DNA from: a plasmid
Direction: 5' to 3' (one strand)
Sequence record: NZ_CP040051.1
DNA: 64,000 nt
The position numbers and the translations under genes were made by a program. This document shows positions 3,985-61,558 of this stretch, piece after piece. Each line of letters starts with the position of its first letter. Position 1 is the stretch's first letter. The notes under the pieces are model-generated. The model was not told where the DNA came from. It saw only the letters and a list, made by a program, of their open reading frames with translations, and ran no database searches.

Positions 3985-3987
3985 GCG

Positions 3988-8848: not shown

Positions 8849-8856
8849 GGGGATAG

Positions 8857-9357: not shown

Positions 9358-9360
9358 CCA

Positions 9361-14733: not shown

Positions 14734-15081
14734 ATGAAAGGCTGGCTTTTTCTTGTTATCGCAATAGTTGGCGAAGTAATCGCAACATCCGCATTAAAAT
14801 CTAGCGAGGGCTTTACTAAGCTTGCCCCTTCCGCCGTTGTCATAATCGGTTATGGCATCGCATTTTATTTTCTTTCTCTGGTTCTGAAATCCATCCCTGT
14901 CGGTGTTGCTTATGCAGTCTGGTCGGGACTCGGCGTCGTCATAATTACAGCCATTGCCTGGTTGCTTCATGGGCAAAAGCTTGATGCGTGGGGCTTTGTA
15001 GGTATGGGGCTCATAATTGCTGCCTTTTTGCTCGCCCGATCCCCATCGTGGAAGTCGCTGCGGAGGCCGACGCCATGGTGA
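14734..15081 (+). CDS. qacEdelta1: QacEdelta1 SMR efflux protein (3'-CS)
   Basis: [33 protein letters not shown] ... is recognised. Overlaps the sul1 start. Confidence 0.9.
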
Positions 15082-15914
15082 CGGTGTTCGGCATTCTGAA
15101 TCTCACCGAGGACTCCTTCTTCGATGAGAGCCGGCGGCTAGACCCCGCCGGCGCTGTCACCGCGGCGATCGAAATGCTGCGAGTCGGATCAGACGTCGTG
15201 GATGTCGGACCGGCCGCCAGCCATCCGGACGCGAGGCCTGTATCGCCGGCCGATGAGATCAGACGTATTGCGCCGCTCTTAGACGCCCTGTCCGATCAGA
15301 TGCACCGTGTTTCAATCGACAGCTTCCAACCGGAAACCCAGCGCTATGCGCTCAAGCGCGGCGTGGGCTACCTGAACGATATCCAAGGATTTCCTGACCC
15401 TGCGCTCTATCCCGATATTGCTGAGGCGGACTGCAGGCTGGTGGTTATGCACTCAGCGCAGCGGGATGGCATCGCCACCCGCACCGGTCACCTTCGACCC
15501 GAAGACGCGCTCGACGAGATTGTGCGGTTCTTCGAGGCGCGGGTTTCCGCCTTGCGACGGAGCGGGGTCGCTGCCGACCGGCTCATCCTCGATCCGGGGA
15601 TGGGATTTTTCTTGAGCCCCGCACCGGAAACATCGCTGCACGTGCTGTCGAACCTTCAAAAGCTGAAGTCGGCGTTGGGGCTTCCGCTATTGGTCTCGGT
15701 GTCGCGGAAATCCTTCTTGGGCGCCACCGTTGGCCTTCCTGTAAAGGATCTGGGTCCAGCGAGCCTTGCGGCGGAACTTCACGCGATCGGCAATGGCGCT
15801 GACTACGTCCGCACCCACGCGCCTGGAGATCTGCGAAGCGCAATCACCTTCTCGGAAACCCTCGCGAAATTTCGCAGTCGCGACGCCAGAGACCGAGGGT
15901 TAGATCATGCCTAG
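15075..15914 (+). CDS. sul1: dihydropteroate synthase Sul1 (279 aa)
   Basis: [58 protein letters not shown]... is recognised. Confidence 0.95.
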
Positions 15915-15937
15915 CATTCACCTTTCCGCCGCCCGCT

Positions 15938-18091
15938 AAATATCTCCTTTTGGGTTGTTAATAAAACATCCAATAAGTTGACTGTGCGTGAAAAAGAAAG
16001 TTTTGTGTGATGGCGTTGAAGATCGCACCGTTAAGCTCTTATGTGGGATGGTGCAGAGCTCGACGACTACCGATAAAACGCAACCGCCGCAAACAGACAA
16101 GAAAAAGCCCCAACTGATAACAGTTGGGGCTTCAGTATTGTGATTGGTGGAGCAATAGCACCCTGAACCAAAAACCTTCTCGCTCAACGGTAGTGGCTGA
16201 TAACAACTCGTGAGGGCTATTGCGGGTTAAGCATTTAGCGATGTCTAGGGCCAGACTGGACGTCTGAACGCAAGCCGCTGATACTGTACATAACCACAGT
16301 ATCAGCGGAGGATACCCATGTCGCTGGCAAGGAACGCCACGGCGAGTCAATCGCCCACTCAAACAAACGGTTACGAACGCCACCAACCCGACCAGACGCT
16401 GCTCTACCAGCTGGTTGAGCAGCACTACCCAGCCTTCAAAGCCTCACTCGAAGCCCAAGGTCAACACCTGCCTCGCTACATCCAACAAGAATTCAACGAC
16501 CTCCTCCAATGTGGCCGTCTGGAGTATGGTTTCATGCGGGTTCGCTGCGAGGATTGTCATCACGAGCGTCTGGTCGCCTTCAGCTGTAAACGACGCGGCT
16601 TTTGCCCTAGCTGCGGTGCCCGCCGGATGGCCGAGAGTGCGGCGCTGCTGATAGACGAAGTCTTCCCCAAGGAGCCCATTCGCCAGTGGGTGCTCAGCTT
16701 TCCTTTCCAGCTACGCTTTTTGCTGGCTCGCCATCCCCAGCTGATGGGCCAGGTCTTGAGTATCGTCTATCGTACACTCTCAACTCATCTGATCAAAAAA
16801 GCCGGTTACACCAAAGCCTCTGCACAAACTGGCTCAGTGACTCTTATCCAACGCTTTGGCTCCGCGCTAAATCTCAATGTCCACTACCACATGCTGTTTC
16901 TCGATGGTGTCTATGCCGAAGATGACTATGGCAAGCAACGCTTCCATCGTGTCAAGGCACCCACTTACGATGAGCTGAATACGCTCGCTCACACCCTCAG
17001 CCATCGCATCGCTCGCTGCATGGAAAAGCGTGGGATTTTGGAGCGTGATGCCGAGAATACGTGGTTGACACTGGAAGAGGGCGAAGACGATACGCTGACT
17101 CAATTACATGGTGCTTCGGTTACGTATCGCATTGCCGTCGGCCCCCAGCAAGGGCGCAAAGTCTTCACCCTGCAAACCTTGCCAGGGCGTGAGGATAAAG
17201 CCGACTCAAGCAGTCGAGTAGCCAACCATGCTGGTTTCTCGCTACACGCCGGTGTGATGGCCGAAGCGCATCAGCGGGATAAGCTTGAGCGCTTGTGTCG
17301 CTACATTAGTCGGCCAGCGGTTTCAGAAAAACGTCTGGCATTAACCGCCAATGGGCAGGTGCGTTACGAGCTCAAAACTCCGTACCGCAATGGCACCACC
17401 CATGTGATCTTCGAGCCGCTGGACTTCATCGCCAAACTCGCTGCGTTGGTACCTAAGCCGCGAGTCAACCTCACACGCTTCCACGGCGTCTTTGCACCGA
17501 ACAGCAAACACCGAGTTCAAGTAACACCCGCCAAGCGGGGCAAGAAGCCCGACAAATCGGAAGGTCTCGATACTAACTGGCGTGACAAGAGTCCTGCAGA
17601 GCGCCACCGCGCCATGACCTGGATGCAACGCCTCAAGCGAGTCTTCAATATTGATATTGAAGTCTGCGAACACTGCGGCGGTCACGTCAAAGTGATTGCC
17701 AGCATCGAAGATCCGAAGGTCATTGAGCAGATTCTCAAGCATCTGAAACAGAAAACAGCCAAGGCGAATGCCGCCAAGCAGCGTGAGCTGCCACCAGAAC
17801 GAGCGCCGCCACTGACTCCCAGCCTGTTCGATCCATCACAGAGTCGTCTCTTTGACTGACGACCCCAAATCCAACACTGCTCAACACTGCCAACTTTTAA
17901 ACGGGGCGGTGGGGCAGTTTGTATCTCTCGAGCTATCAGGCTAGAGATTTTACCGCCAAATCGAACCTTATTAGAGCGGTTTAGGCTGGACCGGCAGTTA
18001 AAATTGGGGCTTGAGCGGTAAACGAGTGAGGGAATTTCAGGTAAGATACTTCGGATGAGGAGCAAAAAGGTGGTTTATACTTCCTATACCC
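15938..18091 (+). mobile_element. ISCR1 copy 1 (about 2.15 kb), with the oriIS end GGTTTATACTTCCTATACCC at 18072-18091
   Basis: Orf513 transposase plus the recognised oriIS terminus. The start is estimated from the canonical length. Confidence 0.8.
16318..17859 (+). CDS. ISCR1 transposase Orf513 (513 aa)
   Basis: The translation MSLARNATASQSPTQTNGYERHQPDQTLLYQLVEQHYPAFK... is recognised. Confidence 0.95.
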   Translation: MSLARNATASQSPTQTNGYERHQPDQTLLYQLVEQHYPAFKASLEAQGQHLPRYIQQEFNDLLQCGRLEYGFMRVRCEDCHHERLVAFSCKRRGFCPSCGARRMAESAALLIDEVFPKEPIRQWVLSFPFQLRFLLARHPQLMGQVLSIVYRTLSTHLIKKAGYTKASAQTGSVTLIQRFGSALNLNVHYHMLFLDGVYAEDDYGKQRFHRVKAPTYDELNTLAHTLSHRIARCMEKRGILERDAENTWLTLEEGEDDTLTQLHGASVTYRIAVGPQQGRKVFTLQTLPGREDKADSSSRVANHAGFSLHAGVMAEAHQRDKLERLCRYISRPAVSEKRLALTANGQVRYELKTPYRNGTTHVIFEPLDFIAKLAALVPKPRVNLTRFHGVFAPNSKHRVQVTPAKRGKKPDKSEGLDTNWRDKSPAERHRAMTWMQRLKRVFNIDIEVCEHCGGHVKVIASIEDPKVIEQILKHLKQKTAKANAAKQRELPPERAPPLTPSLFDPSQSRLFD

Positions 18092-18121
18092 TTTATACTT
18101 CCTATACCCTTTATCAGACTT

Positions 18122-18149
18122 AAAAAAGGCAGCGTTGGCTGCCTTTTGT
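18122..18149. terminator. hairpin plus T-run (ggcagc gttg gctgcc TTTTGT) between ISCR1 and blaPER
   Basis: Seen directly. An A-run lies on the other side, so it is potentially bidirectional. Confidence 0.45.
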
Positions 18150-18183
18150 ATAATTCATCTCTACTTATCACAAGGACAATCCG

Positions 18184-19110
18184 ATGAATGTCATTATAAA
18201 AGCTGTAGTTACTGCCTCGACGCTACTGATGGTATCTTTTAGTTCATTCGAAACCTCAGCGCAATCCCCACTGTTAAAAGAGCAAATTGAATCCATAGTC
18301 ATTGGAAAAAAAGCCACTGTAGGCGTTGCAGTGTGGGGGCCTGACGATCTGGAACCTTTACTGATTAATCCTTTTGAAAAATTCCCAATGCAAAGTGTAT
18401 TTAAATTGCATTTAGCTATGTTGGTACTGCATCAGGTTGATCAGGGAAAGTTGGATTTAAATCAGACCGTTATCGTAAACAGGGCTAAGGTTTTACAGAA
18501 TACCTGGGCTCCGATAATGAAAGCGTATCAGGGAGACCAGTTTAGTGTTCCAGTGCAGCAACTGCTGCAATACTCGGTCTCGCACAGCGATAACGTGGCC
18601 TGTGATTTGTTATTTGAACTGGTTGGTGGACCAGCTGCTTTGCATGACTATATCCAGTCTATGGGTATAAAGGAGACCGCTGTGGTCGCAAATGAAGCGC
18701 AGATGCACGCCGATGATCAGGTGCAGTATCAAAACTGGACCTCGATGAAGGGGGCCGCAGAGATCCTGAAAAAGTTTGAGCAAAAAACACAGCTGTCTGA
18801 AACCTCGCAGGCTTTGTTATGGAAGTGGATGGTCGAAACCACCACAGGACCAGAGCGGTTAAAAGGTTTGTTACCAGCTGGTACTGTGGTCGCACATAAA
18901 ACTGGTACTTCGGGTGTCAGAGCCGGGAAAACTGCGGCCACTAATGATTTAGGTATCATTCTGTTGCCTGATGGACGGCCCTTGCTGGTTGCTGTTTTTG
19001 TGAAAGACTCAGCCGAGTCAAGCCGAACCAATGAAGCTATCATTGCGCAGGTTGCTCAGGCTGCGTATCAATTTGAATTGAAAAAGCTTTCTGCCCTAAG
19101 CCCAAATTAA
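18184..19110 (+). CDS. blaPER: class A extended-spectrum beta-lactamase PER (PER-1 family; the context arr-2/cmlA/ISCR1 is typical of PER-7)
   Basis: MNVIIKAVVTASTLLMVSFSSFETSAQSPLLKEQIESIVIGKKATVGVAVWGPDDLEPLL... is recognised as PER. The allele is not resolvable without comparison to a reference. Confidence 0.95.
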   Translation: MNVIIKAVVTASTLLMVSFSSFETSAQSPLLKEQIESIVIGKKATVGVAVWGPDDLEPLLINPFEKFPMQSVFKLHLAMLVLHQVDQGKLDLNQTVIVNRAKVLQNTWAPIMKAYQGDQFSVPVQQLLQYSVSHSDNVACDLLFELVGGPAALHDYIQSMGIKETAVVANEAQMHADDQVQYQNWTSMKGAAEILKKFEQKTQLSETSQALLWKWMVETTTGPERLKGLLPAGTVVAHKTGTSGVRAGKTAATNDLGIILLPDGRPLLVAVFVKDSAESSRTNEAIIAQVAQAAYQFELKKLSALSPN

Positions 19111-19183
19111 CAGACTATCAGCACTATCTAAGCCGCTGACTCTGGTTGTACACTAAAGCTATGGTTTGAAATTGGAGTAGGTT

Positions 19184-19759
19184 ATGCAGTTATTAGGTTC
19201 AGTGGCTTCCCCTTTTGTTCGTCGTTTACGTTTAGTACTGGCAGGGCAACCTTATCAGTTTGTAGCGCTTAATATTTTTGAGTCTGAAGGCCGTTCAGTG
19301 TTGGTACAACATAATCCGGCACGCAAAGTGCCTGTGTTAGTGGATGGAGAGCAGGTTATTTTTGATTCAGGCGTAATTTATCGTTATTTGGCTTCGAAAC
19401 TGAAATTCAAACCATTGAGCTGGGATCAGGAAAACGGTCTGACGACCATCAATGCCTGCACAGACTCCTTGGTTGAATTACTGCTTTGTAAGCGCTCAGG
19501 TTTTGACGTGACTGAAGATAAATTGTTTTTTAATCTTCAGCATGAGCGAATTCAGGCGACGCTAGAGGCACTTGAGCAACAAATCAGGGCAGGGCATTTC
19601 GGTGACTGGGACTATCCTGGTATCAGTCTGTTCACTTTAATCGACTGGATATTGTTCCGCGATTTAGTCGACTTAAAACCCTTCCCTGTATTATTACAGT
19701 TCAGAAATGCGCATTTAAACCGGCCGATGGTCGCTGAAACCGACCCGCGTTTAAGCTAA
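19184..19759 (+). CDS. gst: glutathione S-transferase-like protein (gst, usual partner of blaPER)
   Basis: 191-aa GST-like ORF immediately downstream of blaPER, as in known blaPER contexts. Confidence 0.8.
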   Translation: MQLLGSVASPFVRRLRLVLAGQPYQFVALNIFESEGRSVLVQHNPARKVPVLVDGEQVIFDSGVIYRYLASKLKFKPLSWDQENGLTTINACTDSLVELLLCKRSGFDVTEDKLFFNLQHERIQATLEALEQQIRAGHFGDWDYPGISLFTLIDWILFRDLVDLKPFPVLLQFRNAHLNRPMVAETDPRLS

Positions 19760-19797
19760 AAACAACAGGTCAGAGCCAAGACTCTGACCTTTATTAT

Positions 19798-20796
19798 TTA
19801 TTCCACACCAATAAAGCCGCCGGTTTGATGCGCCCATAATTGAGCGTAAATACCGCCTTTGGCGATCAGTTCCTGATGACTGCCTTGTTCCACAATACGA
19901 CCTTGATCCAGAACGATCAGCCTGTCCATAGCTGCTATGGTAGATAAACGGTGTGCAATGGCTATAACCGTTTTGCCTATCATCAACTGAGTCAGACTAT
20001 GCTGAATAGCCGATTCTACTTCGGAGTCCAGCGCTGAGGTAGCTTCATCCAGAATCAGAATAGGGGCGTTTTTCAGTAAAACCCGAGCTATTGCAATACG
20101 TTGACGTTGACCACCAGAAAGCTTGACTCCACGTTCGCCCACCTGAGCGTCGTAGCCACTGTTGCCTTTAGGATCGGTAAGCTCCTGAATAAAAGCATCG
20201 GCTTCGGCTAAACGGGCTGCTTCAATCATTTCCGCTTCGGTAGCGCCAGGACGACCATATAAAATATTTTCCCTTACAGTACGGTGTAGCAGGGAGGTAT
20301 CCTGGGTCACCATAGCTATATGAGCGCGAAGACTTTCCTGGGATACGGTTTTAATGTCCTGACCGTCTATCAAAATCTGGCCTGAATTGACATCATAAAA
20401 GCGCAGCAGTAAGTTCACCAGCGTGGATTTACCAGCACCAGAACGGCCGACTAAACCTACTTTTTCACCGGGTTTAATCGACAAGTCCAAACCATCAATC
20501 ACAGGACCATGTTCACCTGCTGCTTTGCCGTAGTTAAAGTTCAGTTGCTTAAACTCAATCTGACCTTGTGGCACTTCAAGCGGCTTCGCATCAGCTTTGT
20601 CGATGATTTGCTGAGGCTGAGACAAAGTCGCAATACCATCTGCCACAGTACCTATGTTTTCAAACAGTGCACTGACTTCCCACATGATCCACTGCGACAT
20701 ACCATTTAAACGCAGCGCCAGACTGACTGCGATGGCAATAGAGCCCACAGTGACGGCATTGACAGACCAAAGCCATATCGCCAGCGTGGCAATAGA
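19798..20796 (-). pseudogene. abct: 5'-truncated ABC transporter ATP-binding/permease gene (abct)
   Basis: C-terminal ABC domain with Walker A GRSGAGKST, signature LSGGQRQR and Walker B ILILDEATSALD. The N-terminus is replaced by the 3'-CS at 20797. Confidence 0.8.
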
Positions 20797-21031
20797 GAAC
20801 ACTGGCATCGCATTTTATTTTCTTTCTCTGGTTCTGAAATCCATCCCTGTCGGTGTTGCTTATGCAGTCTGGTCGGGACTCGGCGTCGTCATAATTACAG
20901 CCATTGCCTGGTTGCTTCATGGGCAAAAGCTTGATGCGTGGGGCTTTGTAGGTATGGGGCTCATAATTGCTGCCTTTTTGCTCGCCCGATCCCCATCGTG
21001 GAAGTCGCTGCGGAGGCCGACGCCATGGTGA
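20797..21031 (+). pseudogene. qacEdelta1: qacEdelta1, second copy, 5'-truncated
   Basis: Identical to 14851-15085 of copy 1. The join to abct is at 20796/20797. Confidence 0.8.
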
Positions 21032-21858
21032 CGGTGTTCGGCATTCTGAATCTCACCGAGGACTCCTTCTTCGATGAGAGCCGGCGGCTAGACCCCGCCG
21101 GCGCTGTCACCGCGGCGATCGAAATGCTGCGAGTCGGATCAGACGTCGTGGATGTCGGACCGCCGCCAGCCATCGGACGCGAGGCCTGTATCGCCGCCGA
21201 TGAGATCAGACGTATTGCGCCGCTCTTAGACGCCCTGTCCGATCAGATGCACCGTGTTTCAATCGACAGCTTCCAACCGAAACCCAGCGCTATGCGCTCA
21301 AGCGCGGCGTGGGCTACCTGAACGATATCCAAGGATTTCCTGACCCTGCGCTCTATCCCGATATTGCTGAGGCGGACTGCAGGCTGGTGGTTATGCACTC
21401 AGCGCAGCGGGATGGCATCGCCACCCGCACCGTCACCTTCGACCCGAAGACGCGCTCGACGAGATTGTGCGGTTCTTCGAGGCGCGGGTTTCCGCCTTGC
21501 GACGGAGCGGGGTCGCTGCCGACCGCTCATCCTCGATCCGGGGATGGGATTTTTCTTGAGCCCCGCACCGGAAACATCGCTGCACGTGCTGTCGAACCTT
21601 CAAAAGCTGAAGTCGGCGTTGGGGCTTCCGCTATTGGTCTCGGTGTCGCGGAAATCCTTCTTGGGCGCCACCGTTGGCCTTCCTGTAAAGGATCTGGGTC
21701 CAGCGAGCCTTGCGGCGGAACTTCACGCGATCGGCAATGGCGCTGACTACGTCCGCACCCACGCGCCTGGAGATCTGCGAAGCGCAATCACCTTCTCGGA
21801 AACCCTCGCGAAATTTCGCAGTCGCGACGCCAGAGACCGAGGGTTAGATCATGCCTAG
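21025..21858 (+). pseudogene. sul1: sul1 second copy carrying six single-base deletions (all at CCGG) that cause multiple frameshifts
   Basis: Direct alignment with 15075-15914. Losses are at copy-1 positions about 15211, 15226, 15247, 15332, 15485 and 15579. Confidence 0.8.
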
Positions 21859-21882
21859 CATTCACCTTCCGGCCGCCCGCTA

Positions 21883-24037
21883 AATATCTCCTTTTGGGTT
21901 GTTAATAAAACATCCAATAAGTTGACTGTGCGTGAAAAAGAAAGTTTTGTGTGATGGCGTTGAAGATCGCACCGTTAAGCTCTTATGTGGGATGGTGCAG
22001 AGCTCGACGACTACCGATAAAACGCAACCGCCGCAAACAGACAAGAAAAAGCCCCAACTGATAACAGTTGGGGCTTCAGTATTGTGATTGGTGGAGCAAT
22101 AGCACCCTGAACCAAAAACCTTCTCGCTCAACCGGTAGTGGCTGATAACAACTCGTGAGGGCTATTGCGGGTTAAGCATTTAGCGATGTCTAGGGCCAGA
22201 CTGGACGTCTGAACGCAAGCCGCTGATACTGTACATAACCACAGTATCAGCGGAGGATACCCATGTCGCTGGCAAGGAACGCCACGGCGAGTCAATCGCC
22301 CACTCAAACAAACGGTTACGAACGCCACCAACCCGACCAGACGCTGCTCTACCAGCTGGTTGAGCAGCACTACCCAGCCTTCAAAGCCTCACTCGAAGCC
22401 CAAGGTCAACACCTGCCTCGCTACATCCAACAAGAATTCAACGACCTCCTCCAATGTGGCCGTCTGGAGTATGGTTTCATGCGGGTTCGCTGCGAGGATT
22501 GTCATCACGAGCGTCTGGTCGCCTTCAGCTGTAAACGACGCGGCTTTTGCCCCTAGCTGCGGTGCCCGCCGGATGGCCGAGAGTGCGGCGCTGCTGATAG
22601 ACGAAGTCTTCCCCAAGGAGCCCATTCGCCAGTGGGTGCTCAGCTTTCCTTTCCAGCTACGCTTTTTGCTGGCTCGCCATCCCCAGCTGATGGGCCAGGT
22701 CTTGAGTATCGTCTATCGTACACTCTCAACTCATCTGATCAAAAAAGCCGGTTACACCAAAGCCTCTGCACAAACTGGCTCAGTGACTCTTATCCAACGC
22801 TTTGGCTCCGCGCTAAATCTCAATGTCCACTACCACATGCTGTTTCTCGATGGTGTCTATGCCGAAGATGACTATGGCAAGCAACGCTTCCATCGTGTCA
22901 AGGCACCCACTTACGATGAGCTGAATACGCTCGCTCACACCCTCAGCCATCGCATCGCTCGCTGCATGGAAAAGCGTGGGATTTTGGAGCGTGATGCCGA
23001 GAATACGTGGTTGACACTGGAAGAGGGCGAAGACGATACGCTGACTCAATTACATGGTGCTTCGGTTACGTATCGCATTGCCGTCGGCCCCCAGCAAGGG
23101 CGCAAAGTCTTCACCCTGCAAACCTTGCCAGGGCGTGAGGATAAAGCCGACTCAAGCAGTCGAGTAGCCAACCATGCTGGTTTCTCGCTACACGCCGGTG
23201 TGATGGCCGAAGCGCATCAGCGGGATAAGCTTGAGCGCTTGTGTCGCTACATTAGTCGGCCAGCGGTTTCAGAAAAACGTCTGGCATTAACCGCCAATGG
23301 GCAGGTGCGTTACGAGCTCAAAACTCCGTACCGCAATGGCACCACCCATGTGATCTTCGAGCCGCTGGACTTCATCGCCAAACTCGCTGCGTTGGTACCT
23401 AAGCCGCGAGTCAACCTCACACGCTTCCACGGCGTCTTTGCACCGAACAGCAAACACCGAGTTCAAGTAACACCCGCCAAGCGGGGCAAGAAGCCCGACA
23501 AATCGGAAGGTCTCGATACTAACTGGCGTGACAAGAGTCCTGCAGAGCGCCACCGCGCCATGACCTGGATGCAACGCCTCAAGCGAGTCTTCAATATTGA
23601 TATTGAAGTCTGCGAACACTGCGGCGGTCACGTCAAAGTGATTGCCAGCATCGAAGATCCGAAGGTCATTGAGCAGATTCTCAAGCATCTGAAACAGAAA
23701 ACAGCCAAGGCGAATGCCGCCAAGCAGCGTGAGCTGCCACCAGAACGAGCGCCGCCACTGACTCCCAGCCTGTTCGATCCATCACAGAGTCGTCTCTTTG
23801 ACTGACGACCCCAAATCCAACACTGCTCAACACTGCCAACTTTTAAACGGGGCGGTGGGGCAGTTTGTATCTCTCGAGCTATCAGGCTAGAGATTTTACC
23901 GCCAAATCGAACCTTATTAGAGCGGTTTAGGCTGGACCGGCAGTTAAAATTGGGGCTTGAGCGGTAAACGAGTGAGGGAATTTCAGGTAAGATACTTCGG
24001 ATGAGGAGCAAAAAGGTGGTTTATACTTCCTATACCC
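21883..24037 (+). mobile_element. ISCR1 copy 2
   Basis: Identical to copy 1 apart from indels. The oriIS end GGTTTATACTTCCTATACCC is at 24018-24037. Confidence 0.8.
22263..23805 (+). pseudogene. ISCR1 transposase gene with a +1 C insertion (CCC to CCCC at about 22550), leaving a split ORF
   Basis: ORFs 22263-22556 and 22360-23805 together reconstitute Orf513. Confidence 0.8.
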
Positions 24038-24041
24038 CTGG

Positions 24042-24878
24042 ATGGACGAACAAGCCATTAAGCAGTGGCATTGCCTGGTCCACCATGGCCGCCGAGGGAG
24101 AGGTTTCCACTACAGTGACACCGCCATTGAGACGGCCCTGATGCTAAAAGGCTTGTTCAAGTTGCCGCTGCGGGCGCTAGAAGGCTTCATTAACTCGTTG
24201 TTCCAACTGATGGCGGTGCCTTTGCAGTCGCCGGACTATAGCTGTATCAGCAAGCGCGCCAAGACCGTCGACATCAAGTACCGCCTCCCCAGCCAAGGCC
24301 CGGTGGCTCACTTGGTCATTGATGCCACCGGCCTCAAGGTCTATGGCGAAGGCGAATGGAAAATTCGCAAACACGGCAAGGAGAAGCGACGAGTGTGGCG
24401 CAAGCTCCACTTGGCGGTGGATGCCACAACCCATGCGGTCATCGCTGCCGAAGTCAGCCTGGAGACGGTGGCGGATAACGAGGTGTTACCGACGTTGCTC
24501 AACCCCTTACGACGCAAGATAAAACAGGTCAGCGCCGATGGTGCGTATGACACCAAGGCCTGTCATGCGCTACTGAAGAAAAAGGGGGCGAAAGCCACCA
24601 TACCGCCGAGAAAAAATGCGGCACCGTGGGAGGAAGGCCATCCCCGCAACGAGGCGGTGACGGCGCTCAAGGCCGGTGAACTGAAGCAATGGAAGAAAGA
24701 CTCCGGCTATCACCAGCGCTCGATAGCCGAGACCGCCATGTACCGGTTCAAGCAACTCATCGGGCCAACGCTGAGCCTGCGGAACTACAACGCCCAGGTG
24801 GGCGAAATCCTGGCTGGCGTGAAGGTGATGAACAAGCTGATAGGGCTTGGTATGCCTGTTCGCCAGCCAGTGAATTGA
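24042..24878 (+). pseudogene. IS5-family (DDE) transposase gene fragment abutting the ISCR1 oriIS
   Basis: 278-aa ORF with IS5/IS427-group features. It starts 4 bp after the oriIS end and no flanking inverted repeats are seen. Confidence 0.55.
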
Positions 24879-24983
24879 GTGGTATCAACGGGTTGGGGAA
24901 CGGCCATCCAGCGACGGATTTGGTCAACAACGCCGATAACACCTCGAAATCGGAGTTTATATGGCTTCGTGGGGGAGTTATGT

Positions 24984-26319: not shown

Positions 26320-26541
26320 TGTTTGAGCTTTGTCGCATTAACGCGAATCAGGGGTTGACGGCAGAAATGGACTGGAATTACACTTCTTAGAGTCGGCGTT
26401 GCCGGAAAATTCTGATTGGATTAGTTGTTCGGGGTGCGAAAACAGTCGTAGTTCGGGGGAAAAACCGAATTTTGACCCGAAACCGCAAAAAACCCGAAAT
26501 GACAGTTCCTATCAAATACTTAACTTGTAGGTTCTTTCAAA

Positions 26542-27314
26542 TGGATAAGAATGATGTTGTTAAGAAGATACTTGAATCAAAAAAGTACGAAAACCTTGAT
26601 TCAGATATTGTTGAAAAGGTTGTTTCCATTTCTGAGAAGAAATATAAATTAAAGGAAGTTGAGAATTATTCTAAAAAGAAATTGCATCAAATATGGGGGT
26701 CTTACTATTCTGCCTATCCTAATTGGGATAAATTATTAAAAAAGTACAATCAGGGGCAGTTATCAATAGAAGATTTACTAAAGATTCATTCTTCGACGAA
26801 TGAAAGAGTCGCAACATTAAATGACTTTTACACTTATGTATTTGGAAATATCAAACATGTCTCATCTATTTTAGATTTTGGTTGTGGCTTCAATCCATTA
26901 GCTTTATACCAATGGAATGAAAATGAAAAAATAATATATCATGCATACGATATTGATAGAGCTGAGATAGCTTTTTTGAGTAGCATTATTGGGAAGTTAA
27001 AGACGACGATAAAGTATAGGTTTTTGAATAAAGAGAGTGATGTCTACAAAGGTACTTATGATGTAGTATTCCTTTTAAAGATGCTTCCTGTGCTAAAACA
27101 GCAAGATGTAAATATCTTGGATTTCCTACAGCTTTTTCATACTCAAAACTTTGTAATATCTTTTCCAATAAAGTCTTTATCTGGAAAGGAGAAGGGAATG
27201 GAAGAGAATTACCAGCTATGGTTTGAATCTTTTACAAAAGGTTGGATAAAAATCCTTGATTCGAAGGTTATAGGGAATGAGTTAGTATATATTACTAGTG
27301 GATTTCAGAAATAA
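26542..27314 (+). CDS. armA: 16S rRNA (G1405-N7) methyltransferase ArmA (257 aa), giving pan-aminoglycoside resistance
   Basis: MDKNDVVKKILESKKYENLDSDIVEKVVSISEKKYKLKEVENYSKKKLHQIWGSYYSAYPNW... is recognised. The local AT-rich composition is typical. Confidence 0.95.
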
Positions 27315-27922
27315 CTCCGCCTCCAAGGCACTCATTTTCTTGGAAAAGTACTAAACTCTGTCCAACGGCTGGAGCCCATTGTGGTGCAGAAAATTCAAAT
27401 ATATATCCATTTTCATTCTGGGTTACTTTTACTGGTGTATCCTGACTTCTATAACGGATAGATGCTGTATAGTTATTATTAAGTAATGAAGTTTCGTTTA
27501 TCAAGTGCAATTCTGAAACACTTACTATGTTTTTCCAAAGTTTTGGATTATCTTTTCCTTGGACAACATAGAGGATATTTTGAGGAAAAGATAGGTTTCA
27601 ACTACAGTTTAGAAGGTTAAAAACAAATGCATGCATGGCTCAAAAGCAATCTAGGGAAGGTGCGAATAAGCGGGGAAATTCTTCTCGGCTGACTCAGTCA
27701 TTTCATTTTTTCCTGTTTGAGCCGTTTTTTCTCCCGTAAATGCACTGTATACCGATATGGGCAGGGCGAAGCGCTAAAGTACAACAATCTTATTGTTAGC
27801 TATTGTCTTGGCGTTCCAGAAAATCTTTAAACTCAATAGTATAAAGCCGTAACAGCACCATGGTTAACGCAAAAATAATTGGCCCATAAATCAAACCAAT
27901 TAAACCAAAGAGTTGCAAACCA

Positions 27923-29249
27923 CCTGAGGTATCCCCAGAAATTCTGTAGTTAAAATAAAATGTTAGTTGATTGGGGAACATTCATGGCGGTTCCTGATCT
28001 GATCATTCGCCAAAACTCCCACACCGCGGATGCTCACCATGAATGTAAAAGCTATGCTCGCTGATTTCCTCACCTTTGTCACGCCAAAATCAATGCATAA
28101 AGCCCGATTTTCGGTTTTGCTAGATGCGGTAACCGCCCTGGCAAAGGATGCGTGTTGCACCGTTACTGCGATTGGCCGGGCGATGCCTGGCTCTTCAGAT
28201 AAGGTCAGTATCAAACGGGCAGATCGTCTACTCAATAATCCTAACCTGCAACGAGAGCTGCCATTGATTTATGCTGCGCTGACGGCTTCTATTGTTGGCC
28301 ATAAAACTAAGCCGATGATTTTGGTTGACTGGAGCAATGCCGATACTGCCAAGCGACACTTTATCCTGCGTGCCAGCATTGCCGCTGACGGTAGAGCGTT
28401 GACTCTGCTACAGAAGATTGCCGCCGCAGAAGATTATACCTGCCCACACCTACACGGGGCGTTTTTAAAGCAGCTTAAAGCCATGCTACCCAAGGACTGT
28501 AAGCCCGTAATTGTCACTGACGCGGGGTTTAAAGTTCCATGGCTGAAACAAGTGCGTAAGCTGGGATGGCATTATGTAGCTAGAGTTCGAGGCAATGTGA
28601 AGCTTAAATTGGCAGAGCAGGACAAGTTTATCAGTGTTAATCAGCTTTATCGGCAAGCGAAGAAGGATCCAAAAAGTGTAGGAAAAATCATGCTTGCCCA
28701 AACACAACACTATGAAACGCAGGCCGTCCTGGTTGGCAAAGGTTATAAGCTATTGAAACGCGATAAAAATAAGACGTATAAGGAACCATGGTTGTTGGTG
28801 TCATCCTTAGCTGACTGCCATGGGTATGCGGATAAAATTGCTAAGTGCTACAGTAGCCGAATGCAAATTGAAGAAAGCTTCCGTGATCAGAAAAGTCACC
28901 GCTATGGCCTGGGTAGCGATTTGCATGGTACCAAGAAGAAATCTCGCTTAGAGATACTGCTACTACTGGCCGCATTGGTTAATTGGTTTCATTACCTGCT
29001 AGGTAGCGCAGCGGAGAAAGCGGGTTTGCACCTGCGTTATCAAGCTAACACCGTTAAAAATAGGCGGGTATTGGCCCTGAATTTCCTTGGGATATTACTT
29101 TGCAAAGAACCCAAACAGCGAATACGCAGGCAATATTATCAGCAGGGACTTAAACAAATACTACAGTGGGTGGTTCAGTGGGACTGGGCAGTAATCAAAC
29201 AGGCTGATAGCTGATTGTATGAATGGAAATTTTGTGGGGATCCCTCAGG
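27923..29249 (+). mobile_element. second IS4-family IS (position of ISEc29 in Tn1548)
   Basis: Ends CTGAGGTATCCCC ... GGGGATCCCTCAGG. 394-aa transposase. Confidence 0.5.
28030..29214 (+). CDS. IS4-family transposase (394 aa)
   Basis: Motifs DAGFKVPW and SRMQIEESFRDQKSHRYG are shared with the IS10-like transposase. Confidence 0.8.
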   Translation: MLTMNVKAMLADFLTFVTPKSMHKARFSVLLDAVTALAKDACCTVTAIGRAMPGSSDKVSIKRADRLLNNPNLQRELPLIYAALTASIVGHKTKPMILVDWSNADTAKRHFILRASIAADGRALTLLQKIAAAEDYTCPHLHGAFLKQLKAMLPKDCKPVIVTDAGFKVPWLKQVRKLGWHYVARVRGNVKLKLAEQDKFISVNQLYRQAKKDPKSVGKIMLAQTQHYETQAVLVGKGYKLLKRDKNKTYKEPWLLVSSLADCHGYADKIAKCYSSRMQIEESFRDQKSHRYGLGSDLHGTKKKSRLEILLLLAALVNWFHYLLGSAAEKAGLHLRYQANTVKNRRVLALNFLGILLCKEPKQRIRRQYYQQGLKQILQWVVQWDWAVIKQADS

Positions 29250-29612
29250 TTGTCTAGACTTCTTTTAACAGTAAAGTTATCATAAAACTGAATTTTATTT
29301 TTTAGGTAAGTTTATGCATTCTATCCGCATTCGTTAAGACACAACTATTTGCATAGTGACACTATTTTATAATGGTGGGCTTTTGTTGTGTCTTTAAGAA
29401 TATATGCGGATATATAAAGTAAAAGTATGCTTAATTTATAAGTATGCTTTTAGTGCATAGTTTCCAGTTATAACTTAATTGACTAGCTATTTGTCCACCC
29501 TGTGGATGAATAGCTTTTTTTTTGGGAGGACACTGTGATGCTAGCTTTTGTTTTCACCTAAATCCTGTTTGCTGCATAAAAAATTTCAAGAGCTAAACAG
29601 GAGTAAATAAAA

Positions 29613-31088
29613 ATGAGTTTAATTATTAAAGCGAGAAACATACGCTTGGATTATGCTGGGCGTGATGTTTTGGATATTGATGAATTGGAAATTCACTCTT
29701 ATGACCGTATTGGTCTTGTGGGTGATAACGGAGCAGGAAAGAGTAGTTTACTCAAAGTACTTAATGGCGAAATTGTTTTAGCCGAAGCGACATTACAGCG
29801 TTTTGGTGATTTTGCACATATCAGCCAACTGGGCGGAATCGAAATAGAAACGGTCGAAGACCGGGCAATGTTATCTCGCCTTGGTGTTTCCAATGTACAA
29901 AACGACACAATGAGTGGCGGAGAGGAAACTCGTGCAAAAATTGCTGCCGCATTTTCCCAACAAGTACATGGCATTCTAGCGGATGAACCAACCAGCCACC
30001 TTGATCTCAATGGAATAGATCTACTTATTGGTCAACTTAAAGCATTTGATGGAGCATTACTTGTTATCAGTCATGACCGATATTTTCTTGATATGGTTGT
30101 AGACAAGATATGGGAGTTAAAAGACGGTAAAATTACGGAATATTGGGGTGGTTACTCGGATTACTTGCGTCAAAAAGAAGAAGAGCGACAACACCAAGCC
30201 GTAGAATATGAGCTGATGATGAAGGAACGGGAGCGATTAGAATCTGCTGTGCAAGAAAAACGCCAGCAAGCTAATCGATTAGACAATAAGAAAAAAGGAG
30301 AAAAATCCAAAAACTCTACCGAAAGTGCTGGACGACTTGGGCATGCAAAAATGACTGGCACCAAGCAAAGAAAACTGTATCAGGCAGCTAAGAGTATGGA
30401 AAAGCGTTTGGCTGCATTAGAAGATATTCAAGCACCAGAGCATTTGCGTTCTATTCGTTTTCGTCAAAGTTCAGCCCTAGAACTGCACAATAAGTTCCCG
30501 ATTACGGCAGATGGTCTGAGCTTAAAATTTGGTAGCCGTACTATCTTTGATGACGCTAACTTTATAATACCGCTTGGCGCTAAAGTCGCTATAACTGGAT
30601 CGAATGGAACAGGGAAAACGTCCTTGTTAAAAATGATATCAGAACGTGCTGATGGATTAACCATATCTCCAAAAGCTGAAATTGGCTACTTTACACAAAC
30701 AGGATATAAATTTAACACGCATAAATCTGTGCTCTCCTTTATGCAGGAAGAGTGCGAGTACACAGTTGCGGAAATTCGTGCAGTATTGGCTTCAATGGGG
30801 ATCGGAGCGAATGATATTCAAAAAAACTTATCCGACTTATCGGGAGGTGAAATCATCAAACTGCTTTTATCCAAAATGCTTTTAGGAAAATATAATATTT
30901 TGCTTATGGATGAACCAGGAAACTATCTTGACCTAAAAAGTATTGCCGCATTAGAAACAATGATGAAGTCCTATGCAGGAACTATTATCTTCGTATCTCA
31001 TGACAAGCAATTGGTCGATAATATTGCTGACATTATCTACGAGATCAAAGACCACAAAATCATCAAGACTTTTGAGAGAGATTGTTAA
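29613..31088 (+). CDS. msr(E): ABC-F ribosomal protection protein Msr(E) (491 aa), macrolide resistance
   Basis: [48 protein letters not shown] ... Two ABC domains are present. Confidence 0.95.
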
Positions 31089-31143
31089 TGATAGCCAATC
31101 TAATCCGAACATTAATTATTGAACTCTTTAAAGGAAATTAAAA

Positions 31144-32028
31144 ATGACAATTCAAGATATTCAATCACTTGCTGAAGCACACGGCTTGTTGCTTACGGAC
31201 AAAATGAATTTCAATGAAATGGGCATTGATTTTAAGGTCGTTTTTGCTCTTGATACAAAGGGGCAACAATGGTTGCTGCGTATTCCTCGTCGTGATGGCA
31301 TGAGGGAACAAATCAAGAAAGAAAAACGCATTTTAGAATTGGTAAAAAAACATCTTTCTGTAGAGGTTCCTGATTGGAGAATTTCATCTACAGAATTAGT
31401 GGCTTATCCCATACTTAAAGATAATCCTGTTTTAAATTTGGATGCTGAAACCTATGAAATAATTTGGAATATGGACAAAGATAGCCCGAAATACATAACA
31501 TCTTTGGCAAAAACCTTATTTGAAATCCATAGTATTCCTGAAAAAGAAGTTCGGGAAAATGATTTGAAAATTATGAAACCTTCAGATTTAAGACCTGAAA
31601 TAGCAAACAATTTGCAGTTAGTAAAATCTGAAATTGGTATAAGTGAGCAATTGGAAACCCGCTACAGAAAATGGTTGGATAATGATGTTCTATGGGCAGA
31701 TTTCACCCAATTTATACATGGCGATTTATATGCTGGGCATGTACTAGCTTCAAAGGATGGAGCTGTTTCAGGCGTTATTGATTGGTCAACAGCCCATATA
31801 GATGACCCAGCGATTGATTTTGCTGGGCATGTAACTTTGTTTGGAGAAGAAAGCCTCAAAACTCTAATCATCGAGTATGAAAAACTAGGGGGTAAAGTTT
31901 GGAATAAACTATATGAACAGACTTTAGAAAGAGCAGCGGCCTCTCCTTTGATGTATGGTTTATTTGCCTTAGAAACTCAAAATGAAAGCCTTATCGTTGG
32001 AGCAAAAGCTCAGTTGGGAGTTATATAA
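31144..32028 (+). CDS. mph(E): macrolide 2'-phosphotransferase Mph(E) (294 aa)
   Basis: MTIQDIQSLAEAHGLLLTDKMNFNEMGIDFKVVFALDTKGQQWLLRIPRRDGMREQIKKEKRILEL... is recognised. Confidence 0.95.
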   Translation: MTIQDIQSLAEAHGLLLTDKMNFNEMGIDFKVVFALDTKGQQWLLRIPRRDGMREQIKKEKRILELVKKHLSVEVPDWRISSTELVAYPILKDNPVLNLDAETYEIIWNMDKDSPKYITSLAKTLFEIHSIPEKEVRENDLKIMKPSDLRPEIANNLQLVKSEIGISEQLETRYRKWLDNDVLWADFTQFIHGDLYAGHVLASKDGAVSGVIDWSTAHIDDPAIDFAGHVTLFGEESLKTLIIEYEKLGGKVWNKLYEQTLERAAASPLMYGLFALETQNESLIVGAKAQLGVI

Positions 32029-32139
32029 TTTAAAAATATGATTGCTGAGAACTGCCTTGTTTTGAAACTTGGTTGGCTTTAATTAGTTTTTAGTATTCTT
32101 TATAGAAAATGCCTCGATCAAGGGGCATTTCTAACAATC

Positions 32140-32167
32140 ATTTAACATAAAATTTCTTATACGAAAT
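32140..32167. other. pdif (XerC/XerD-type recombination) site: ATTTAACATAA-AATTTC-TTATACGAAAT
   Basis: Two 11-bp arms matching the reverse complements of the XerD (TTATGTTAAAT) and XerC (ATTTCGTATAA) consensus, separated by a 6-bp spacer. Confidence 0.65.
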
Positions 32168-32206
32168 GCTTGATATTTCTCTTTAAATATCATTATATTA
32201 ACGTAA

Positions 32207-32245
32207 GCCGTTCTGGAGTATAGGGCACCAGAACGGCTTTTTATT
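32207..32245 (+). terminator. rho-independent terminator (10-bp stem gccgttctgg/ccagaacggc plus T-run)
   Basis: Seen directly. Confidence 0.5.
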
Positions 32246-32386
32246 GATTATTCATGTTCCACGATCACTAATTGAGCGATGTTCCACGGTTTTATTCAGT
32301 TTTAATAAACATCATCCGGTTTTTTGAGGAGTCATTATTTCAAGTGCTTGCACTGAAATTGGCTCTTCAAAAAACTGGAGTCTTGG

Positions 32387-32929
32387 CTAACCATATGGAA
32401 GGAAAAAGCGGCTTAGGAAGCCTCTCTTCTTCTGTTCTGGTTCAACATGCTCCGGGATAGGAATACGCTTATTGTCTTGCTGAGGAGTAGTCAATTCGTC
32501 ATAGTTCGTTGCTAGTTCCGACCGAGGATCCGTTGCTATATCCTGTTTAAAGCTCTGATCGGTAAAGGTAGTCATATTGGCTTTTGGTGCTTCTAGTAAG
32601 CGCTGCATAGCTTCAATCTGTTCTTGATAAAACGATTCACGTTCTAAAGATTGATTTTCTCTCTGTATTGCCTGATTTAATTGTTTTTCCAGTATGTCAA
32701 CTTGACGTTTTAGTAAGTCAACTTCTGTCAAGTTTTGACTGTTAATTGATTGACTTTGATTGACTGTATCCTCTTTTTTTTGTGGTTCCCCAAAAACTCT
32801 TAGGGCCTCTGAAAAGTCAATTAATCCATCAGATCCTTTAGATAAATTTCCTTTGTTTATATGTGCATATATGGCTTGTCTTGAATATCCATAAAGCTTA
32901 GCTAACTCTGAAACTGACAGTTTTTTCAT
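32387..32929 (-). CDS. HTH DNA-binding protein (180 aa) adjacent to the rep fragment
   Basis: N-terminal HTH (LSVSELAKLYGYSRQAIYAHINKGNL) and a coiled-coil C-terminus. Confidence 0.55.
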   Translation of the reverse strand: MKKLSVSELAKLYGYSRQAIYAHINKGNLSKGSDGLIDFSEALRVFGEPQKKEDTVNQSQSINSQNLTEVDLLKRQVDILEKQLNQAIQRENQSLERESFYQEQIEAMQRLLEAPKANMTTFTDQSFKQDIATDPRSELATNYDELTTPQQDNKRIPIPEHVEPEQKKRGFLSRFFLPYG

Positions 32930-32995
32930 TATGTAAACCAGTTTTCAACTTGTGTTAATACCTGACTGTTAACTTAACAATTTCAATTAACAATG

Positions 32996-33750
32996 TCATT
33001 GAAATCCTAATTTTCTGAGTAAAGGAAGTAATTCCTTAAATTTCTCTGCATCTTGCAGCATGGCAGCTATACGTACAGCAAACTGCTGATAGCTTTCTGT
33101 GCCTTGTGAATATTTACTCATCTCAGGAAGCTCTGAGAGCTTGTTGGCGAATAGATGGCGTTGTTTATCTGTTATTTTTGAAAAGAGGTCTAATGTATTC
33201 GGATCTCTTTTAGATTCGACTGAATGCGTGGCTGATTTTTTCTGTTTAAAGCTAAATGAAAAACCAGTAATAGATCTACCTGTTTTATGCTGTTCAACTT
33301 TGACAATAATATCGGTATGTTCATTTACTTGTTTTAATGCAATGTCTAAAACATATTTTTTAAAATCATACATTCGTTTGTATTCAGTCTCGAGTACACC
33401 TATTTTTTGTCTAAAATCATACATAGTTATGAGAGGCGTTTTTCCAGTACTACGCCATGCAATCAATATTTCATATAAACGAACAGCATAAGCACTTGTT
33501 AAATTACTTATTTGTTGTATTTCATACTTTGTAAATTGTTCTTCTAACCTAGTAATTAAAGGCACAATAGCAGGGGCAAAAATAAGTCTAACGACAGCTT
33601 CATTATCAATATAAGCCACCTCGCTCACCCATCTTGATTTGTGATTAATAGTGTTACCTTTTTCACTAAGACTCTGATAACTGAATTGTCTTGCAAACAA
33701 GTCATCGCAAGCATCTTTTAACGCCTGATAAGCCGTATTTCGATGTACAC
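32996..33750 (-). pseudogene. repAciN: Rep_3-family replication initiator (RepAciN-like), 5'-truncated by IS26
   Basis: The C-terminal about 250 aa of a Rep_3-type protein. The ORF continues into the IS26 inverted repeat, which fits the known right end of Tn1548. Confidence 0.7.
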
Positions 33751-34569
33751 GGCACTGTTGCAAATAGTCGGTGGTGATAAACTTATCATCCCCTTTTGCT
33801 GATGGAGCTGCACATGAACCCATTCAAAGGCCGGCATTTTCAGCGTGACATCATTCTGTGGGCCGTACGCTGGTACTGCAAATACGGCATCAGTTACCGT
33901 GAGCTGCAGGAGATGCTGGCTGAACGCGGAGTGAATGTCGATCACTCCACGATTTACCGCTGGGTTCAGCGTTATGCGCCTGAAATGGAAAAACGGCTGC
34001 GCTGGTACTGGCGTAACCCTTCCGATCTTTGCCCGTGGCACATGGATGAAACCTACGTGAAGGTCAATGGCCGCTGGGCGTATCTGTACCGGGCCGTCGA
34101 CAGCCGGGGCCGCACTGTCGATTTTTATCTCTCCTCCCGTCGTAACAGCAAAGCTGCATACCGGTTTCTGGGTAAAATCCTCAACAACGTGAAGAAGTGG
34201 CAGATCCCGCGATTCATCAACACGGATAAAGCGCCCGCCTATGGTCGCGCGCTTGCTCTGCTCAAACGCGAAGGCGGTGCCCGTCTGACGTTGAACACCG
34301 ACAGATTAAGTACCGGAACAACGTGATTGAATGCGATCATGGCAAACTGAAACGGATAATCGGCGCCACGCTGGGATTTAAATCCATGAAGACGGCTTAC
34401 GCCACCATCAAAGGTATTGAGGTGATGCGTGCACTACGCAAAGGCCAGGCCTCAGCATTTTATTATGGTGATCCCCTGGGCGAAATGCGCCTGGTAAGCA
34501 GAGTTTTTGAAATGTAAGGCCTTTGAATAAGACAAAAGGCTGCCTCATCGCTAACTTTGCAACAGTGCC
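33751..34569 (+). mobile_element. IS26 copy 2 (819 bp, one base short)
   Basis: Same inverted repeats as copy 1, in direct orientation with copy 1. Confidence 0.95.
33814..34517 (+). pseudogene. tnpA: tnp26 with a single-base loss at a CCGG (GGCCGGTG to GGCGGTG) that frameshifts the transposase
   Basis: ORFs 33796-34326 and 34323-34517 together equal Tnp26, aligned against copy 1. Confidence 0.85.
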
Positions 34570-51401: not shown

Positions 51402-51643
51402 TCAGCTAATTGAATATATATTGGAAGCTGAATTTAACAGCTTCCAATTTTGAATAATTCGTAACAAAGGAATGTTTGCAAACCTAGACGTAATTAATAT
51501 TATTAAATAAAACGTTAAGAATAAAAGGAACTGAATATGATTGACTGGTTACTGATAAGACGGGCAGTATCAGTTCGGACTTATCATAATATCATTACTT
51601 ATTTTTTCTGATTATTATCCTTCTCTGCCTTGTAAATATTGGT

Positions 51644-61298: not shown

Positions 61299-61558
61299 TT
61301 GCAAGATAAAAATTAATAAAATCAATGAAATACAATTACCCCCTATATAGAATAAATTTAAATTTATATTTATATAAATTTATATATATAGGAAGGACTT
61401 TCTTAGGTTTTTTGAATGTTTTATTCTTTAAAATACGGCTATATCTTTTTTTTTAAAATCATTTCCATTTTCCTTTTTTTGTTTTAAAATCATATTTCGC
61501 TATCCACTATTCTTTTTGACACCAGCTCATACAACAGAGCAATATAGTAGGTATTAAC

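Follow-up and report, generated by a model that had tools for sequence, protein, structure and literature searches.

The stretch analysed here (the window, 64,000 nt of the Acinetobacter resistance plasmid in record NZ_CP040051.1) contains a duplicated 3.24-kb repeat comprising the 3' part of qacEdelta1, sul1 and ISCR1, together with two copies of IS26 (Table 1), and its backbone is 99.99% identical to pA297-3. When the copies were compared by self-BLAST and global alignment, the two repeats were found to be 99.69% identical, and the IS26 copies differed by a single gap. Over both pairs there are ten differing places: at nine a CCGG site has lost one base, and at the tenth a C-run has gained a single C. 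An earlier note on this DNA had described the repeats as differing by CCGG single-base losses plus one homopolymer insertion, which the alignment bears out. Its details also stand, except that the starts it gave for the two copies (14851 and 20797) need shifting by 2 and 6 bases, and the difference at 15923–28 is a compound event (+T, −G) rather than a pure loss.

Table 1. Repeat copies, affected genes and sequence differences in the window.
Feature	Position	Strand	State
Repeat copy 1 (qacEdelta1 3' part, sul1, ISCR1)	14853..18091	+	14 CCGG intact, 2 damaged
Repeat copy 2	20803..24037	+	10 CCGG intact, 6 damaged, one additional C
IS26 copy 1	10720..11539	+	error-free, 6 CCGG sites; Tnp26 (10783-11487) as in reference
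IS26 copy 2	33751..34569	+	one base missing at CCGG
sul1 copy 1	15075..15914	+	intact, 279 aa, identical to Sul1 of pAB04-1
sul1 copy 2	21025..21858	+	834 nt instead of 840 nt
Six-site CCGG block, sul1 copy 2	21160..21525	+	each site cut to CCG or CGG; copy 1 intact at 6/6
Compound error, copy 1 (+T, −G)	15923..15928	+	TTTCCG; TTCCGG in references and copy 2
CCGG loss, copy 1	16188..16190	+	CGG; CCGG in references and copy 2
ISCR1 transposase gene, copy 1	16318..17859	+	intact, 513 aa, identical to reference
C-run gain, copy 2	22550..22553	+	CCCC; CCC in references and copy 1
CCGG loss, IS26 copy 2	34275..34277	+	CGG; CCGG in references and copy 1
T6 run, single-copy backbone	51596..51601	+	T7 in seven reference plasmids
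T9 run, intergenic	61446..61454	+	T8 in seven reference plasmids

Motif-specific differences and their effect on genes

CCGG makes up 2.2% of the compared bases and is the site of nine of the ten differences, a concentration with a chance probability of about 1e-14 (binomial P = 1e-14). The consensus repeat contains 16 CCGG sites and IS26 contains six. Other GC tetramers in the repeat were unaffected (GGCC, 12 sites; CGCG, 14; GCGC, 21), and among 146 homopolymer runs of at least three bases the only length changes were the additional C at 22550–53 and the additional T within the compound event. There were no independent substitutions between the copies. No sub-motif told damaged from intact CCGG sites, the flanking bases being mixed. 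The compound event and the longer C-run are typical of signal-segmentation and homopolymer errors, and the motif specificity points to a systematic long-read error, probably of nanopore type.

The damage falls most heavily on the second sul1 copy, where CCGG is reduced to CCG or CGG at 21160–62, 21174–76, 21194–96, 21277–79, 21430–32 and 21523–25. Because these six single-base losses total 6 nt, the C-terminal third of the gene is back in frame, and alignment-based restoration of the six bases makes the gene identical to copy 1. Of the two events in repeat copy 1, the compound event is non-coding, as it follows the stop codon of sul1 by approximately 10 nt, and the loss at 16188–90 is upstream of the ISCR1 transposase start. 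In copy 2, the ISCR1 transposase gene (22263–23805) is split by the additional C, removal of which yields the 513-aa protein again. In the second IS26, GGCCGGTG has become GGCGGTG, breaking the tnp26 frame (33814–34517) and leaving a 170-aa product that ends at 34326. With the bases restored, Sul1, the ISCR1 transposase and Tnp26 are all recovered in exact form.

Single-copy sequence and related plasmids

Single-copy regions of the window were compared with two to seven independent reference records. None of 131 single-copy CCGG sites was damaged vs. 9 of 44 in repeated DNA (Fisher p = 2e-6), and the earlier suggestion that other CCGG-containing genes in the window may be affected is therefore not upheld. 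GC content was ruled out as the cause of the repeat-only hits: the equally GC-rich unique parts (1–10719 and 11540–14852) hold 63 CCGG sites and no errors (0/63, p = 2e-4). Judged against the external references, each of the ten events occurs in one copy only, with no error common to both, and the errors fall in blocks: six CCGG sites in a row are wrong in copy 2 (p = 0.0014), and the two that follow are wrong in copy 1. This confinement to repeats, one copy at a time, is the main structural clue and was absent from the earlier account; to explain it, a failure of short-read polishing within repeats is needed as a second ingredient.

Apart from these events, the window differs specifically only in the lengths of two T-runs in single-copy DNA, one of which (T6) cuts a 152-aa open reading frame to 116 aa. 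Both the T6 and the T9 run are probable residual homopolymer errors, to judge from the reference sequences; if so, either the polishing with short reads was incomplete or those reads had a homopolymer weakness of their own. The persistence of these discrepancies in the unique backbone, like the motif specificity of the differences, would also fit the reading of the earlier note, in which the assembly was made from long reads only and CCGG was damaged motif-wide across the window and the genome. That reading is nevertheless very unlikely: it is already contradicted by the window-wide comparison of single-copy with repeated sites, and in long-read-only assemblies repeats are not normally of different quality from unique sequence (PMC8812927). 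Under-calling in flow space (Ion Torrent or 454) could likewise be proposed, given that CCGG consists of two consecutive 2-base homopolymers, CC and GG, and that long T-run discrepancies remain in unique sequence. We regard it as extremely improbable, since unique and repeated CCGG sites, and other CC and GG runs, would suffer alike, and neither was seen.

The window carries the odd allele at every affected site, CCGG being present in pAB04-1, pVB82_1 and the P7774 plasmid. Over positions 13136–34569 (21.4 kb), the ten events and one natural A/C polymorphism are the only differences from pAB04-1, and comparison with pVB82_1 and the P7774 plasmid gave the same result. The P7774 plasmid has the same repeat with uncorrected repeat errors, none of them at CCGG. 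Among the best-scoring 5,000 sul1-carrying plasmid records, CCGG is intact at the sul1 sites in at least 4,998; none has the set of six deletions, and no record shares more than a single one of them, a level reached by two. The V54 variant protein is a common real polymorphism.

Searches with the error-derived fragments gave mixed returns. For the 98-aa sul1 fragment there was no recorded exact match, and exact matches to the 97-aa ISCR1 fragment were contig-end truncations only. No record in the plasmid search spanned the IS26/backbone junction, and exact-pattern scans of species-representative genomes gave no match. Through exact matches to the 170-aa Tnp26 fragment, the same GGCCGGTG lesion was found in five other public assemblies, in at least one of which it adjoins an EcoRII/Dcm-type system typical of Enterobacterales; these five records also have further indels typical of long-read consensus. 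The sul1 site GCCGGCCG is likewise reduced to GCCGCCG in an Enterobacter hormaechei IncHI2 plasmid. These assemblies have lost one CCGG site each vs. 9 of 44 in the window. The lone IS26 hit of the window lies at the hot spot seen in the five IS26 records, and the remaining five CCGG sites of the element are spared.

Recurrence of this kind could also be produced by a true mutational hot spot, and redundant copies are free to decay. The deletions would then be real −1 frameshifts at CCGG, arising for example by slippage or by mutagenesis linked to a methyltransferase or restriction system, that inactivated one copy each of sul1, ISCR1 and IS26. The known outcome of mutagenesis at 5-methylcytosine (5mC), or of mutagenesis by methyltransferases acting on CCGG, is a C-to-T transition and not a deletion. 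We consider real deletions highly improbable, as they would have to account for six independent −1 events within 366 nt of one gene with zero substitutions, for the absence of hits at 131 single-copy sites, for a compensated +T/−G shift, and for the other long-read-type indels in the records that have the IS26 lesion. No related plasmid compared shares the deletions, so that inheritance by related replicons is absent, as is a mixed mutation spectrum (nine of ten events being −1 at CCGG). It is scarcely credible that the deletions are the real products of a process directed at CCGG that introduces −1 frameshifts with a preference for duplicated DNA of this plasmid; such a process might be tied to a host CCGG methyltransferase/restriction system or to inter-repeat recombination and, if true, would amount to motif-targeted inactivation of redundant gene copies.

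The earlier claims that mutational decay does not account for the differences, which are artefacts, and that the frameshifted sul1, ISCR1 and tnp26 are artefacts too, are thus sustained: the references carry CCGG throughout, the deletions are found in no related plasmid compared, and the restored proteins are exact. The frameshifted genes almost certainly reflect leftover sequencing errors and are not true pseudogenes; both sul1-ISCR1 modules and both copies of IS26 are almost certainly intact in the plasmid itself.

Probable read placement in repeats and possible causes of the CCGG losses

Taken together, the sequence comparisons make it very probable that the differences are assembly artefacts with two steps, the dropping of bases at CCGG in long reads followed by polishing that is blind in repeats. 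In the first step, long reads, of which Oxford Nanopore is the likeliest source, would have been assembled into a replicon with one base systematically dropped at CCGG in the consensus. In the second, to which the observed pattern points, short reads, or else some other polisher that works by alignment, would have been used to correct the draft, and would repair all CCGG errors in single-copy DNA. Within the sul1-ISCR1 duplicate and IS26, short reads would go to whichever copy was locally better, so that the favoured copy would be fully corrected while the other received no reads and kept every draft error. Placement of reads on the better copy would leave errors that are limited to repeats, spare one of the two copies at each site, and come in blocks; the six-site block suggests that this winner-takes-all placement operated at fragment scale. 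Short-read polishers are known to leave errors in repeats when one instance is error-free, since reads prefer that instance (Wick and Holt, 2022; PMC8812927).

Why CCGG should have lost a base is a separate matter. With moderate confidence, we take the likeliest cause to be host 5mC at CCGG that the basecaller had not been taught. Of the nanopore consensus errors obtained with a basecaller model that lacked the relevant methylation, approximately 70% fell at 5mC motif sites (Wick et al., 2019; PMC6591954). A CCGG-containing 5mC motif (WNCCGG) is reported in Acinetobacter baumannii Ax270 and Ex003, and CCGG is the plotting motif for pA297-3, which has 529 5mC sites in its natural host; the 5mC load depends on the strain, with thousands of sites in A297, AB307-0294 and G7 and none in ACICU or ATCC 17978 (PMC13227989). 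Such documentation in several strains of the species and in pA297-3 makes host methylation a plausible candidate cause, against which stands the loss of a base at the same sites in assemblies of Enterobacterales that are unrelated to the window. A six-frame scan of the window gave no C5-methyltransferase signature motifs, and we found no direct report in the literature of CCGG-specific one-base deletions in nanopore consensus.

The alternative is an intrinsic, methylation-independent weakness of the chemistry or basecaller in the CCGG context, combined with the same polishing blind spot and involving no host 5mC. We consider this possible, and clearly less likely than host methylation. It would explain why the IS26 lesion occurs in identical form in five further assemblies (beside an EcoRII/Dcm-type system in at least one), why the same sul1 site is lost in the E. 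hormaechei plasmid, and why the only IS26 hit in the window is at the shared hot spot; the deletions at these recurring sites argue that sequence context, and not methylation, drives at least part of the effect. An intrinsic weakness fits less well with nine losses in the window, six of them in a row, against one in each other assembly, with hit and unhit sites that are not separable by sub-motif, and with the documented CCGG 5mC in this species and plasmid family. Nor does it sit easily with the P7774 plasmid, in which the same repeat has errors elsewhere. The absence of CCGG losses from the P7774 repeat errors would fit a dependence on methylation; however, such losses do occur singly, at the same sites, in Enterobacterales assemblies that may or may not be methylated there.

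Implications and comparison with known systems

The CCGG pattern is almost certainly artefact and not biology. In the source record, one copy each of sul1, the ISCR1 transposase gene and the IS26 transposase gene is consequently reported wrongly as a pseudogene, and inferences on gene copy number or IS26 activity drawn from it would be wrong. More generally, motif-specific one-base losses that are confined to repeats and to one copy at each site are a compact, read-free diagnostic, recognizable in finished sequence, of a draft built from long reads and incompletely polished with short ones, and hint at CCGG modification in the host. Since both the IS26 and the sul1 lesion turn up again in other public assemblies, databases could be screened for them as errors.

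Four known situations resemble the one described here. Genuine pseudogenization of redundant resistance-gene or IS copies also leaves one of two copies frameshifted, but real decay brings substitutions, indels and IS insertions that are inherited by relatives, whereas here there is one motif and one type of event. The residual repeat errors described in the Polypolish paper (PMC8812927) are alike in being restricted to multi-copy sequence, with the other copy error-free and single-copy sequence essentially clean; they are mostly homopolymer errors, while those in the window are motif-specific. Nanopore errors at methylation motifs, such as Dcm CCWGG in Enterobacteriaceae (PMC6591954), share the restriction to one short 5mC-type motif, the false frameshifts and the dependence on species or strain. 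In the present case the motif is CCGG, the errors are one-base losses only, they occur only in repeats, after the proposed polishing, and they are known from the finished sequence alone. Finally, the CCGG 5mC of A. baumannii and pA297-3 (PMC13227989) concerns the same species, the same motif and the plasmid family to which the window backbone belongs, although the subject of that study was strain-dependent methylation and not assembly errors.

Plasmid Setting and Resistance Region

Sequence comparison assigns the window to a large conjugative plasmid of Acinetobacter that belongs to the pA297-3 family, its backbone (34570-64000) sharing 99.99% identity with pA297-3 (KU744946), pAB04-1 (CP012007), and pApW20-1 (CP027659). 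Nearly the same resistance region is found in the A. baumannii plasmids CP040260 (strain P7774), CP050386 (pVB82_1), and CP012007. In these three relatives ∼12 kb, comprising a resolvase gene, ISCR2, tetR/tet(B), sul2, ISAba1, and tniA/tnsA, separates IS26 from the backbone point that IS26 copy 2 of the window adjoins directly at 34569/34570. This junction was absent from every PLSDB record, and its arrangement looks like the product of an IS26-mediated adjacent deletion. The first 10,719 nt encode ISCR2, sul2, ParA, KorB, an HTH protein, a small N6-methylase, and thymidylate kinase. Plasmids of Klebsiella pneumoniae and Providencia stuartii cover this segment at 99.7-99.9% identity in two to three pieces, and the module is thus common to several genera; the annotation of those plasmids places a DNA cytosine methyltransferase gene in the matching region.

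Features of the window and differences between repeat copies
Feature	Position	Content or change
Resistance region	1-34569	ISCR2, sul2, ParA/KorB/thymidylate-kinase segment, IS26, arr-2, cmlA5, qacEdelta1, sul1, ISCR1, blaPER-7, gst, qacEdelta1, sul1, ISCR1, IS10A, armA, ISEc29, msr(E), mph(E), IS26
Long repeat, copy 1	14853-18091	qacEdelta1-sul1-ISCR1
Long repeat, copy 2	20803-24037	qacEdelta1-sul1-ISCR1
IS26 copy 1	10720-11539	
IS26 copy 2	33751-34569	
Single-copy segment	1-10719	52 CCGG sites
Single-copy segment	11540-14852	11 CCGG sites
Single-copy segment	18092-20802	5 CCGG sites
Single-copy segment	24038-33750	12 CCGG sites
Single-copy segment	34570-64000	51 CCGG sites
Events in sul1, copy 2	21160-62, 21174-76, 21194-96, 21277-79, 21430-32, 21523-25	one base lost at each of six CCGG sites
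Event in copy 1	15923-28	compound +T/-G, TTTCCG for TTCCGG
Event in copy 1	16188-90	CGG for CCGG
Event in copy 2	22550-53	CCCC for CCC
Event in IS26 copy 2	34275-77	GGCGGTG for GGCCGGTG

Differences Between the Repeat Copies

Self-comparison revealed two repeat families, and global alignment of their copies gave a complete list of ten events, with no further differences in either family. Nine of the ten fall in CCGG, a motif that makes up 2.2% of the compared bases (P = 1e-14) and occurs 16 times in the long-repeat consensus and six times in IS26. Other GC tetramers of the long repeat were untouched (0/12 GGCC, 0/14 CGCG, 0/21 GCGC), and together with the P value this spared-motif contrast makes the observation real and far beyond chance. 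Among 146 homopolymer runs of at least three bases, length changed only at the C-run insertion in copy 2 and at the +T of the compound event. The alignment thus bears out the earlier note, which had described one-base losses restricted to CCGG plus one C-run insertion; its coordinates were also correct except for the repeat starts, which were off by 2 and 6 bases.

At every affected site, external comparison identified the window allele as the odd one. Across 21.4 kb (13136-34569), the ten events and one A/C position, a natural inter-copy polymorphism, are the only differences between pAB04-1 and the window, and both pVB82_1 and the P7774 plasmid have CCGG at every affected site and CCC at 22550. 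The six-deletion sul1 occurred in none of the best-scoring 5,000 sul1-carrying plasmid records, and even one of the six deletions was present in only 2 of them. Restoring the missing bases renders sul1 copy 2 nucleotide-identical to copy 1, and with the bases corrected the ISCR1 and IS26 transposases are identical to reference proteins; sul1, ISCR1, and tnp26 of copy 1 are already intact.

The six losses in sul1 copy 2 (21025-21858) total 6 nt, such that the original frame is regained for the final third of the gene; automated annotation could report this stretch as a credible C-terminal piece of Sul1. In relatives, the two sul1-ISCR1 copies differ from each other by natural polymorphisms, A/C (window 16170 and 22114) and C/T (16278 and 22223). 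Both window copies carry A and C at these positions and have therefore been homogenised, by gene conversion or by polishing.

Genuine mutation is a very unlikely origin for the deletions, given six one-base losses within 366 nt of one gene with zero substitutions, a compensated +T/-G shift among the events, changes found in no relative, and no damage at single-copy CCGG sites. Mutagenesis at methylated CCGG, moreover, produces C-to-T transitions, not deletions. We regard the differences as almost certainly artefacts.

Confinement of Errors to Repeated Sequence

All 131 single-copy CCGG sites in the window were intact, as judged from an exact 10,719-bp match of positions 1-10719 to four records, comparison of the island segments with three records, and comparison of the backbone with seven. 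Damage thus affected 9/44 CCGG sites in repeated vs. 0/131 in single-copy sequence (Fisher p = 2e-6), and the difference held when only equally GC-rich single-copy segments were considered (0/63; p = 2e-4). Every error lies in a single copy, with the partner correct at the same site. The errors also cluster: in copy 2 they affect six CCGG sites in a row (repeat positions 358-726; p = 0.0014) and in copy 1 two consecutive sites (1073 and 1336), with two sites between the blocks intact in both copies and all remaining sites likewise right in both. The earlier note's reading of the differences as artefacts stands, since the window allele is aberrant and restoration is exact, but its suggestion that other CCGG-containing genes of the window may be damaged is contradicted.

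Because the errors are confined to repeats, a polishing blind spot is indicated. During short-read polishing, reads prefer the error-free instance of a repeat, leaving none over the faulty one, and residual errors are therefore located in repeats (Wick & Holt, PMC8812927); the pattern in the window matches this published failure mode of alignment-based polishing. We infer the sequencing platform, the polishing, and the methylation alike: a long-read draft would have contained errors at many CCGG sites, and in places perhaps at every one, after which short reads would have repaired all single-copy sites and, in repeats, only the copy attracting reads within each fragment-length neighborhood. 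Repair of the read-attracting copy alone would account for the restriction of each error to one copy and for the clustering. The pattern is not a biological feature; its relevance is to quality control.

All seven references read T7 and T8 where the single-copy backbone of the window has T6 (51596-51601) and T9 (61446-61454), respectively, the first change shortening a 152-aa ORF to 116 aa (51644-51994). Both may be residual homopolymer errors, in which case polishing was imperfect at long homopolymers. At 55349 (ORF 55190-55594), G for A gives V54 for I54 in a 134-aa hypothetical protein; an error was rejected here, as the V54 protein is on record in 130 collection blocks and is a real, common polymorphism.

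Possible Roles of Host Methylation and Sequence Context

If the differences are artefacts, methylation of CCGG in the host is a reasonably probable cause of the errors. In A. baumannii, 5mC was found at (WN)CCGG(NW) in a 2026 study, with thousands of sites in some strains and none in others, and on pA297-3 the count of 5mC sites was 529 in the natural host but much lower in a different one (PMC13227989). By analogy, CCGG modification in the present host is credible; no C5-methyltransferase signature was found within the window.

Sequence context alone, again supposing artefacts, is a rather doubtful explanation of the CCGG losses. The exact IS26 lesion (IS26 position 525) recurs in five further public assemblies (GCA_045622245, GCA_045618645, CP053616, GCA_045582485, and the Logan assembly of ERR10499514), in some beside other long-read-style indels. 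The Enterobacter hormaechei IncHI2 plasmid NZ_AP025834.1 (AP025834), and probably also CP034755, lacks a base at one of the six sul1 sites (GCCGGCCG to GCCGCCG). As these lesions recur in other hosts, part of the effect is possibly contextual; they are recurrent database error hot spots amenable to screening. However, these other assemblies lose one CCGG site each vs. nine here, and the errors left uncorrected in the corresponding ISCR1 copies of the P7774 plasmid all lie outside CCGG.

The P7774 indels (NZ_CP040260.1, within 10853-14091 and 16803-20040) include AA-GAGCC, CCCC-AG, and a 2-bp CG loss, and CDS annotation is missing for its ISCR1 copies and first sul1 copy; the indels probably arose through the same polishing blind spot, although the kinds of error differ. 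In Klebsiella, Dcm sites accounted for ∼70% of nanopore consensus errors in one study (PMC6591954), and the CCGG specificity seen in the window resembles the behavior of nanopore basecallers at 5mC motifs missing from their training data.
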